DNA of 64,000 bases from Escherichia coli (GTDB lineage Bacteria; Pseudomonadota; Gammaproteobacteria; Enterobacterales; Enterobacteriaceae). Each line of letters begins with the position of its first letter. Position 1 is the stretch's first letter. Location of the stretch: assembly GCF_013122565.1 (NCBI RefSeq), contig NZ_CP053258.1. One strand, written 5' to 3'. The notes beneath the pieces were generated by a model. It had not been told where the DNA came from. It made no database searches and worked only from the letters and a program-made list of their open reading frames with translations. The position numbers and the translations under genes are program-made. This document shows, piece after piece, positions 17,985 through 20,345 of this stretch.

Positions 17985-18016
17985 TAAAAAAGCCGCCAGG
18001 TTTGACCCCGGCGGCT
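17985..18016 (-). terminator. intrinsic terminator of ahpCF (minus strand)
   Basis: Plus strand aaaaaagccgccagg-tttgacc-ccggcggc; on the minus strand a GC hairpin followed by a U-tract, just after the ahpF stop. Confidence 0.7.
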
Positions 18017-18045: not shown

Positions 18046-19611
18046 TTATGCAGTTTTGGTGCGAATCAGGTAGTCAAAAGCACTCAGAGAGGCTTTGGCA
18101 CCTTCGCCAGTAGCGATGATGATCTGCTTGTACGGAACCGTCGTACAGTCACCCGCTGCGAACACGCCTTTGACGTTGGTTTCACATTTCGCATCAATGA
18201 TAATCTCACCCATGCGGTTACGCTCGACTGCGCCTTCCAGCCAGTTAGTGTTCGGCAGCAGACCAATCTGGACGAAAATACCGGCCAGTTCGATGTTGTG
18301 AATATCGCCGCTGACACGATCACGATATTCCAGACCAACGACTTTGCTGCCGTCGCCTTTCACTTCCGTAGTTTGCGCATTCAGAATGATGTCGACGTTT
18401 TTCAGGCTGCGCAGTTTGTCCTGCAGAACCTGGTCGGCTTTCATTTCTGGCGCAAATTCCAGCAGAGTAACGTGTTCAACGATACCCGCCAGGTCGATTG
18501 CCGCTTCCACGCCGGAGTTACCGCCGCCGATAACCGCTACGCGTTTGCCTTTAAACAGCGGGCCGTCGCAGTGCGGGCAGTAGGTCACGCCCTTGGTGCG
18601 ATACTGATCTTCGCCAGGAACGTTCATGTTGCGCCATTTTGCACCAGTCGCCACGATAATGCTGCGTGCTTTCAGTACCGCGCCAGAAGCTGTTTCAATC
18701 TGATGCAGGCCACCTTCAACCGCTGCCGGGATCAGTTTGCTGGCGCTCTGGCTGTCGATCACATCAACGTCGTATTCATCAACGTGAACTTTCAGCGCAC
18801 CTGCCAGTTTCTGGCCTTCGGTCTTCGGTACAGAAATGTAGTTTTCGATATCAACGGTATCGAGGATCTGACCACCAAAACGTTCGCCCATCAAACCAGT
18901 ACGGATACCTTTACGTGCGGAGTAAATTGCTGCCGCTGCACCCGCCGGGCCGGAACCGACGATTAATACGTCATAAGCATCACGCTTGTTCAGCTCTTCT
19001 GCCGCACGTTTTTCCGCGCCAGTATCAATTTTGGCGACGATTTCAGTCAACGTCATGCGGCCCTGACCAAACTCTTTCCCGTTTACGAACACTGCCGGAA
19101 CGCCCATCACGTTGCGATCGGTGATTTCGTTCTGGAAGGTGCCGCCGTCAATTGCAGTGTGCTTGATGCGCGGATTCAGTACGCTCATCAGGTTCAGCGC
19201 CTGCACCACGTCCGGGCAATTGTGGCAAGAGAGCGAGTAATAGGTTTCGAATTCAAAATCACCGTCAATATGGCGAATCTGCTCCAGCAGAGACTGCGCT
19301 TCTTTCGACGGATGACCACCGGTCCACAGCAGCGCCAGTACCAGCGAGGTGAACTCGTGGCCCAGCGGGGAGCCTGCAAAACGTGGCCCCTGGTTGGAAC
19401 CTGGGTTGGTGATCAGGAAAGACGGCTTACGCACCGGCAAGCTGTTATCTTCTTTAAAGGTGACTTTGTCTGACAGTTCTGCGATTTCAGCCAACAGTTC
19501 CTTGATTTCTGCCGATTTAGCGCTGTCATCCAGCGTGGCAATTAACTCAACAGGCTTGGTCAATTTCTCAAGGTAAGCCTTGAGTTGAGTTTTCATATTT
19601 GTGTCGAGCAT
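18046..19611 (-). CDS. ahpF: alkyl hydroperoxide reductase subunit F (521 aa)
   Basis: Internal Met ([17 protein letters not shown]) of track ORF 18046..19641; CPHCDGP redox centre and FAD/NAD GxGxxG motifs. Confidence 0.93.
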
Positions 19612-19781
19612 GTTTATCTCCTGGGCTTTAAACATCATCATGCAAGCGGCCTCTGCGGCTACCTGGATGCAGCTTGCATCATGGTGCGGGGAAGAAAATC
19701 GGGTGCCGCAGCACCCGATTAATTAGGTGAATTTCCGAAGTATTTCGCGCCGGAGTTGGTAGCGCGAAAGACGAAGGAAAT

Positions 19782-20345
19782 TTAGATTTTACCAACCAGG
19801 TCCAGAGACGGAGCCAGAGTTGCTTCACCTTCTTTCCATTTAGCCGGGCAAACTTCACCTGGGTGAGAAGCAACGTACTGGGCTGCTTTGATTTTGCGCA
19901 GCAGGTCAGACGCGTCACGGCCAATGCCTTCAGCGGTAACTTCGATAGCCTGGATGATACCCTGCGGGTCAACTACGAAGGTCGCACGGTCAGCCAGACC
20001 TTCTTCTTCACGCATGTTTTCGAAGTTACGGGTCAGGGCGCCAGTCGGGTCGCCGATCATCGCATATTTGATTTTAGCGATGGTTTCAGAGCTGCTGTGC
20101 CATGCTTTGTGGGTGAAGTGAGTATCAGTAGATACTGCGTATACGTCTACGCCCAGTTTCTGCAGTTCTTCGTAGTGGTCAGCAACGTCACCCAGTTCGG
20201 TCGGGCATACGAAAGTAAAGTCAGCCGGGTAGAAGAAGAAGACGCTCCAGCGGCCTTCGGTATCTTTTTCGGTGATTTCGATGAATTCGCCGTTTTTGAA
20301 TGCCTGGTTTTTAAAAGGTTTGATTTTGGTGTTAATCAAGGACAT
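19782..20345 (-). CDS. ahpC: alkyl hydroperoxide reductase subunit C, peroxiredoxin (187 aa)
   Basis: Track ORF 187 aa with FTFVCPTEL peroxidatic cysteine motif. Confidence 0.95.

Follow-up and report, generated by a model that had tools for sequence, protein, structure and literature searches.

The 170-nt spacer between ahpC and ahpF in this E. coli genome is a composite of three independent modules, designated here H1, H2, and H3 in order from ahpC to ahpF, each with its own history, rather than one device. It is very likely that H1 is a remnant of an ERIC element, that H2 is a partial terminator, and that H3 is a site for RNase III, and together the three hairpins probably help the cell to make far more AhpC than AhpF. 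The window, by which we mean the whole 64,000-nt stretch of DNA that was analysed, has the E. coli gene order found in K-12 (uspG, ahpF, ahpC, dsbG), with both ahp genes on the minus strand, and positions 19612-19781 are the entire spacer, from the ahpC stop codon to the ahpF start codon. The features discussed below are as follows.

19782..20345, minus strand: ahpC coding sequence, 187 aa, stop codon TAA at 19784-19782 (open reading frame list and the ahpC annotation in matching E. coli genomes).
19730..19782, minus strand: H1, a short, core-less ERIC/IRU forming an imperfect hairpin (inverted repeat, fold, and alignment to ERIC arms).
19697..19720, minus strand: H2, terminator stem-loop AAUCGGGUGC-UGCG-GCACCCGAUU (inverted repeat, fold, and covariation).
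19688..19698, minus strand: U-rich tail of H2, UUUUCUUCCCC (Term-seq 3' ends in K-12).
19632..19687, minus strand: H3, a long imperfect hairpin with an RNase III site (inverted repeat, fold, and a published cut that maps here).
19632..19647, minus strand: nearly invariant block GCUUGCAUGAUGAUGU in the 3' arm of H3 (alignment of 14 taxa).
19618..19622, minus strand: ahpF Shine-Dalgarno sequence AGGAG, 6 nt 5' of the ATG (read from the sequence).
18046..19611, minus strand: ahpF coding sequence, beginning MLDTNMK, ATG at 19611-19609 (open reading frame list and RefSeq start).
17991..18016, minus strand: end-of-operon terminator after ahpF (terminator scan; 10-bp stem with 8 G-C pairs, tail UUUUUAU).

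A preliminary description of the locus had presented it as a structured 170-bp spacer with several short inverted repeats, and its coordinates are exact. Three inverted repeats are present: the perfect palindrome aatcgggtgccgcagcacccgatt, which had been given as the example, at 19697-19720 (two 10-nt arms and a 4-nt loop), and two imperfect repeats with 21-nt arms at 19730-19750/19762-19782 and 19633-19653/19666-19686. Folding, which had been proposed as a check, confirms a stable structure, as the sense-strand spacer RNA has an energy of -61.2 kcal/mol compared to -43.3 +/- 4.2 kcal/mol for 200 dinucleotide shuffles of the spacer (z = -4.26); since none of the 200 folded as well, the structure is more than chance. 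It was found in 5,422 of the 5,426 complete E. coli genomes that, together with ahpC-ahpF spacers from other species, formed the comparison set, and the GGA core of the ahpF Shine-Dalgarno sequence is invariant in the cross-species alignment. A permissive Rfam scan of the spacer returned chance-level matches only and no family; a match to MicF (E = 6.5) was discounted, as it was driven by the terminator hairpin. In one DH5alpha assembly (NZ_CP045741.1), approximately 89 bases are absent at ~530-560 of the extracted locus and the junction is garbled. This gap, which could be either a real deletion or an assembly error, spans the 3' half of H2, H3, the ribosome-binding site, and the first ahpF codons, and ahpF is annotated 9 nt shorter in that assembly.

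H2 is probably a leaky intrinsic terminator. Its perfect 10-bp stem contains six G-C pairs, closes on a 4-nt loop, has an energy of -17.8 kcal/mol, and is followed by UUUUCUUCC, with predicted pair probabilities of 0.95-1.0 over nine of the ten pairs. The U-tract itself (GAUUUUCUUCC) is interrupted, with four U, a C, and two U (UUUUCUU), and compared to the end-of-operon terminator after ahpF the tail of H2 is weaker. The motif CGGGUGC-loop-GCACCCG followed by a T-run recurs across Enterobacterales, and the T-run 3' of the stem is kept in 24 taxa. In an alignment of 24 Enterobacterales, 91.3% of cells are paired, versus 27-44% in slid controls, half of the pairs (5/10) have changed on both sides, and this level of covariation was reached by 0 of 500 shuffles. 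In the Term-seq data tabulated by Adams et al. (2021), K-12 RNA 3' ends appear at 639668 in two conditions and at 639670 in one; these map to window positions 19696 and 19694, inside the U-run of H2. The base of the stem differs between the two strains, and because the window has AA where K-12 has CU, its stem is two A-U pairs longer, with 10 pairs rather than 8. A simple terminator scan of the spacer missed H2, probably because, with all 10 stem pairs counted, no more than 4 T remain in the tail window, and a literature search returned no measured termination efficiency, read-through, or in vitro termination for the ahpC-ahpF spacer. The preliminary description had suggested that the repeats form a partial terminator, and this is largely borne out for H2 by the GC-rich stem, U-run, covariation, and Term-seq ends, but it does not extend to H1, an ERIC remnant, or to H3, an RNase III site. 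The Term-seq tables also contain an "orphan" 3' end on the minus strand in all three conditions, at K-12 638796 (approximately 20494 in the window); it falls between dsbG and ahpC, with the ahpC start 149 nt downstream.

The main rival to termination at H2 is that the hairpin acts only as a 3' stabiliser, so that all transcripts would read through, RNase III would cut at H3, and exonuclease trimming back to H2 would produce the observed 3' ends. Term-seq does not separate termination from trimming, the interrupted U-tract is in keeping with this reading, and Gordon, Cameron & Pfleger (2017; mBio; PMC5371410) both report that RNase III cleavage stabilises the ahpC mRNA and suggest protective 3' hairpins. 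We nevertheless consider this explanation unlikely, as the 3' ends fall within the U-run directly after the stem, as they do at intrinsic terminators, and as the hairpin and T-run are kept across Enterobacterales and beyond, including in genera that have no H3. A terminator-like hairpin lies between ahpC and ahpF in most of the lineages examined. In Proteus, Providencia, Pantoea, Erwinia, Brenneria, Mangrovibacter, and Arsenophonus, all without H3, it ends 18-22 nt before the ahpF ATG, implying that ahpF would be expressed only by read-through in these genera. Pseudomonas-group and Comamonadaceae genomes also carry a hairpin and T-run in the ahpC-ahpF interval, with stems of unrelated sequence. 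Judging from these sequence comparisons, internal terminators appear to be widespread among ahpCF operons.

In E. coli, endogenous hydrogen peroxide is scavenged mainly by AhpCF, a system that requires AhpC in considerable excess over AhpF. The spacer has no reported transcription start and yielded no promoter-like site, and these results, the 18-22 nt gaps in other genera, and the excess of AhpC lead us to infer that termination at H2 is partial and that, together with processing, it sets the AhpC:AhpF ratio. This excess is large, with approximately 197,000 copies of AhpC and 1,250 copies of AhpF per cell by emPAI, a rough method. Such a difference in abundance, along with the length of the spacer (170 nt), might also be expected if ahpC and ahpF were separate transcription units, with H2 a full terminator and an ahpF promoter within the spacer. 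However, this alternative is largely refuted, and we consider it very improbable. A consensus scan of the sense strand of the spacer found no promoter-like site, and the tagRNA-seq data of Lacoux et al. (2020) class the 5' ends in the spacer as processed and report no transcription start there, the only starts described being upstream of ahpC. Furthermore, the RNA cut by RNase III extends across the spacer, and in several genera the terminator is followed by the ahpF ATG after only 18-22 nt. Conway et al. (2014) described three ahpC promoters and no internal terminator.

The preliminary description had also raised the possibility of an attenuator, and this is not supported. A regulated attenuator or riboswitch-like switch, in which read-through responds to a signal such as peroxide, would suit a highly structured region in a stress operon, and the 3' arm of H3 is conserved far above what pairing needs, yet a search for an antiterminator by folding found nothing stable and no structure that competes with H2, nine of whose ten pairs form at probabilities of 0.95-1.0. 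There is no Rfam match and no leader peptide, AUGAUGAUG gives no conserved small ORF, and the sequence upstream of H2 is either a variable repeat or absent. We therefore give a switch of this kind almost no credence. Several other candidate elements were likewise rejected. A longer ahpF open reading frame from 19641 (531 aa, 30 nt too early) is an artefact that occurs in Escherichia only and is absent from the RefSeq annotation; the mechanical call arises because AUGAUGAUG, a part of H3, shares the reading frame of ahpF (window 19609-19641). In other genera, the triplets at this position run into a stop or another frame. Small open reading frames, namely MMQAASR followed by a stop and the frame initiated at AUGAUGAUG, lack a Shine-Dalgarno sequence and vary among genera in frame and stop, while a 7-bp AUGUUUA/UAAACAU pairing around the ahpF start is, judged by eye, not conserved in other genera. 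A literature search returned nothing relevant on a small RNA derived from the spacer.

H3 folds into an imperfect hairpin of 56 nt (-23 kcal/mol), in which 20 pairs are interrupted by internal mismatches, and its stem provides the extended duplex of about two helical turns expected of an RNase III site. It occupies one place per genome, and was accordingly rejected as a dispersed repeat. Among the matches listed, which include no ahpC-ahpF spacer from Salmonella, Shigella, or Klebsiella, it occurs at 13 other Enterobacteriaceae loci, at a fixed distance of 19-21 nt from the ATG, and its sequence is identical in the window and K-12. According to Gordon et al. (PMC5371410), an rnc-dependent site at NC_000913.3:639695 was confirmed with purified RNase III and 5' RACE; this position maps to 19669 in the window, in the 5' arm of H3, with the cut between 19670 and 19669. 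The same study gives an ahpC mRNA half-life in K-12 of approximately 14 min in the wild type and 6 min in an rnc mutant, with ahpF unchanged. In addition, the tagRNA-seq data of Lacoux et al. (2020) place processed, monophosphate 5' ends at K-12 639731/639732, or 19633/19632 in window coordinates; these ends sit at the base of the 3' arm of H3, 21 nt upstream of the ahpF ATG. The 15 consensus pairs of H3 have 0 compensatory changes, as the sequence is too conserved to show any, and the structure consequently rests on energy, conservation, and the published cleavage. All of the published RNA data come from K-12, which carries a 244-nt allele of the spacer, whereas the window carries a 170-nt allele. 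The preliminary description had proposed that the spacer sets the ahpC:ahpF expression ratio. This fits the excess of AhpC and is, in our reading, probably correct in part, but some of the difference between ahpC and ahpF is post-transcriptional, given that RNase III cleavage more than doubles the half-life of the ahpC mRNA.

The 3' arm of H3 is conserved far beyond the needs of pairing. An alignment of 14 Enterobacteriaceae taxa shows no variation in 15 of the 16 columns of its block GCUUGCAUGAUGAUGU. For comparison, these taxa agree at just 19 of the 109 four-fold synonymous sites of ahpC and ahpF (17%; P about 6e-11), and of 13 positions in the 5' arm only 7 are invariant. The 2-nt overhang rule predicts a second RNase III cut at 19648|19647, which would make the block the exact stretch between two processing sites. 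An invariant block with a varying partner, lying exactly between a predicted cut and a processed 5' end, could have a function of its own. Modelling of the block with the 3' tail of ahpC predicts a duplex of -17.6 kcal/mol, and the block could stay annealed to this tail as a double-stranded cap after cleavage; if true, this would explain the stabilisation that depends on RNase III. Alternatively, the block could serve as a recognition element whose sequence is read by a nuclease or another protein.

H1 forms a hairpin of -19.1 kcal/mol that begins at the ahpC stop codon and lies within the 3' UTR of ahpC. Its two arms align with the outer arms of the full ERIC that occupies this site in K-12 and in other genera, and also with independent E. 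coli ERIC copies at rpsB-tsf, ybiT, ybhI-ybhJ, and ardC-mobH, four copies that share the core as well as the outer arms with the K-12 element; the ERIC copies that were fetched sit between or after genes. At approximately 53 nt, compared to 127 nt for ERIC, H1 is without the central 74 nt or so. The ERIC core, which spans the region of the ERIC1R and ERIC2 primers, is not present in the window but is present at the same site in the 244-nt allele, in which approximately 74 extra bases in the middle of H1 include matches to both ERIC-PCR primers, with one or two mismatches. As both arms align and the core is missing, H1 is a short, core-less ERIC. The ERIC of the full-length allele belongs to a dispersed repeat family that occupies a median of 8 places in each genome, and its other copies align over positions 5-121 of 126. 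The ERIC copy at this ahp site is presumably already catalogued.

Three alleles of the spacer segregate in E. coli: the 244-nt allele with the full ERIC in ~33% (about 1,764 genomes), the 170-nt allele with the short ERIC, as in the window, in ~47% (the remainder, ~2,550 genomes), and a 128-nt allele without H1 in ~20% (1,108 genomes). The particular short-ERIC variant of the window is matched at a minimum of 95% identity by 1,404 of the ~2,550 short-form genomes. Alignment of the 128-nt allele favours neither an empty site nor a deeper deletion of ERIC over the other. This allele occurs in O157:H7, and its filler, GTTCCGCAATCGCG, shows no clear relationship to either end of ERIC. Outside E. 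coli, Enterobacter, Citrobacter, Kluyvera, Siccibacter, and Superficieibacter carry the full ERIC at this position, and one soil MAG has an independent short form at the ahpC-ahpF site, while other genera have REP-like sequence or almost nothing there. The full ERIC copies at this site in K-12 and Superficieibacter electus are 95% identical (120/126), oddly more alike than their surroundings (78% for the rest of the spacer and 87% for ahpC).

The variability of H1 among strains and genera suggests a modulator at most, and its effect on expression is probably small at most. This variability also bears on whether the hairpins in general might be neutral repeat debris with no role in expression. 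For H1 such a reading is true or at least plausible, with three alleles at 20-47% in E. coli and REP-like or no sequence at its site in other genera. As an account of the whole spacer it is highly improbable, since H2 covaries, H3 is single-copy and strongly conserved, and molecular phenotypes have been published for both. Different AhpC:AhpF set-points among E. coli lineages could result from the three ERIC alleles. The suggestion that either the block of H3 has a function of its own, as an annealed cap or recognition element, or the ERIC alleles act as set-points is a tentative one, and we regard it as doubtful.

The composite reading, which we favour, would operate as follows. Transcripts would begin at the OxyR-controlled ahpC promoters, and at H2, with its interrupted U-tract, many would end just after ahpC while the rest would continue into ahpF, yielding more ahpC message. 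In the read-through transcripts, RNase III would cut H3 and separate the ahpC and ahpF halves, after which the ahpC half would retain its 3' hairpins and live longer, and the ahpF half would be trimmed to a leader of approximately 21 nt. H1, as a decayed ERIC miniature repeat, would be a polymorphic element of the ahpC 3' UTR. The structures, conservation, ERIC homology, and allele frequencies come from this analysis, while the 3' ends, RNase III cleavage, half-lives, and processed 5' ends were published in K-12. The structure is real and the biology ordinary, with all three hairpins of described kinds and essentially known already for K-12; as this is biology of a textbook type and the key experiments are published for that strain, the finding adds little. 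The spacer does illustrate a route to unequal output from an operon, in which a leaky terminator is followed by nuclease processing that uncouples the decay of the two halves. The three-allele polymorphism arising from ERIC decay also matters for ERIC-PCR typing and for comparisons of expression between strains, and the unusually conserved block of H3 is a second modestly useful point.

The rplL-rpoB spacer of E. coli combines a partial terminator with an RNase III site, the terminator being an intrinsic one internal to the operon. The ahpC-ahpF spacer resembles it in having a GC-rich hairpin and U-run between co-transcribed genes of unequal output, followed by an RNase III hairpin, and differs in that the tail of H2 is an interrupted U-run. 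The K-12 site of Gordon et al. 2017 (PMC5371410) is the same locus with the same H3 sequence, although K-12 has the 244-nt allele with the full ERIC upstream; the accessible portion of that paper makes no mention of a terminator, an ERIC element, or conservation across species. At the pflB-pflA RNase III site, described in the same study (PMC5371410), cleavage 3' of a highly expressed gene likewise stabilises the upstream message, but that site adjoins a downstream promoter, and none is evident for ahpF. Finally, ERIC/IRU repeats are 127-bp imperfect palindromes of enterobacteria (reviewed by Delihas 2008, PMC2229807). The copy in the window differs from these in lacking the ERIC-PCR primer sites along with the central core in which they lie, but H1 is homologous to both termini and is, like them, intergenic and transcribed, in this case directly after a stop codon.
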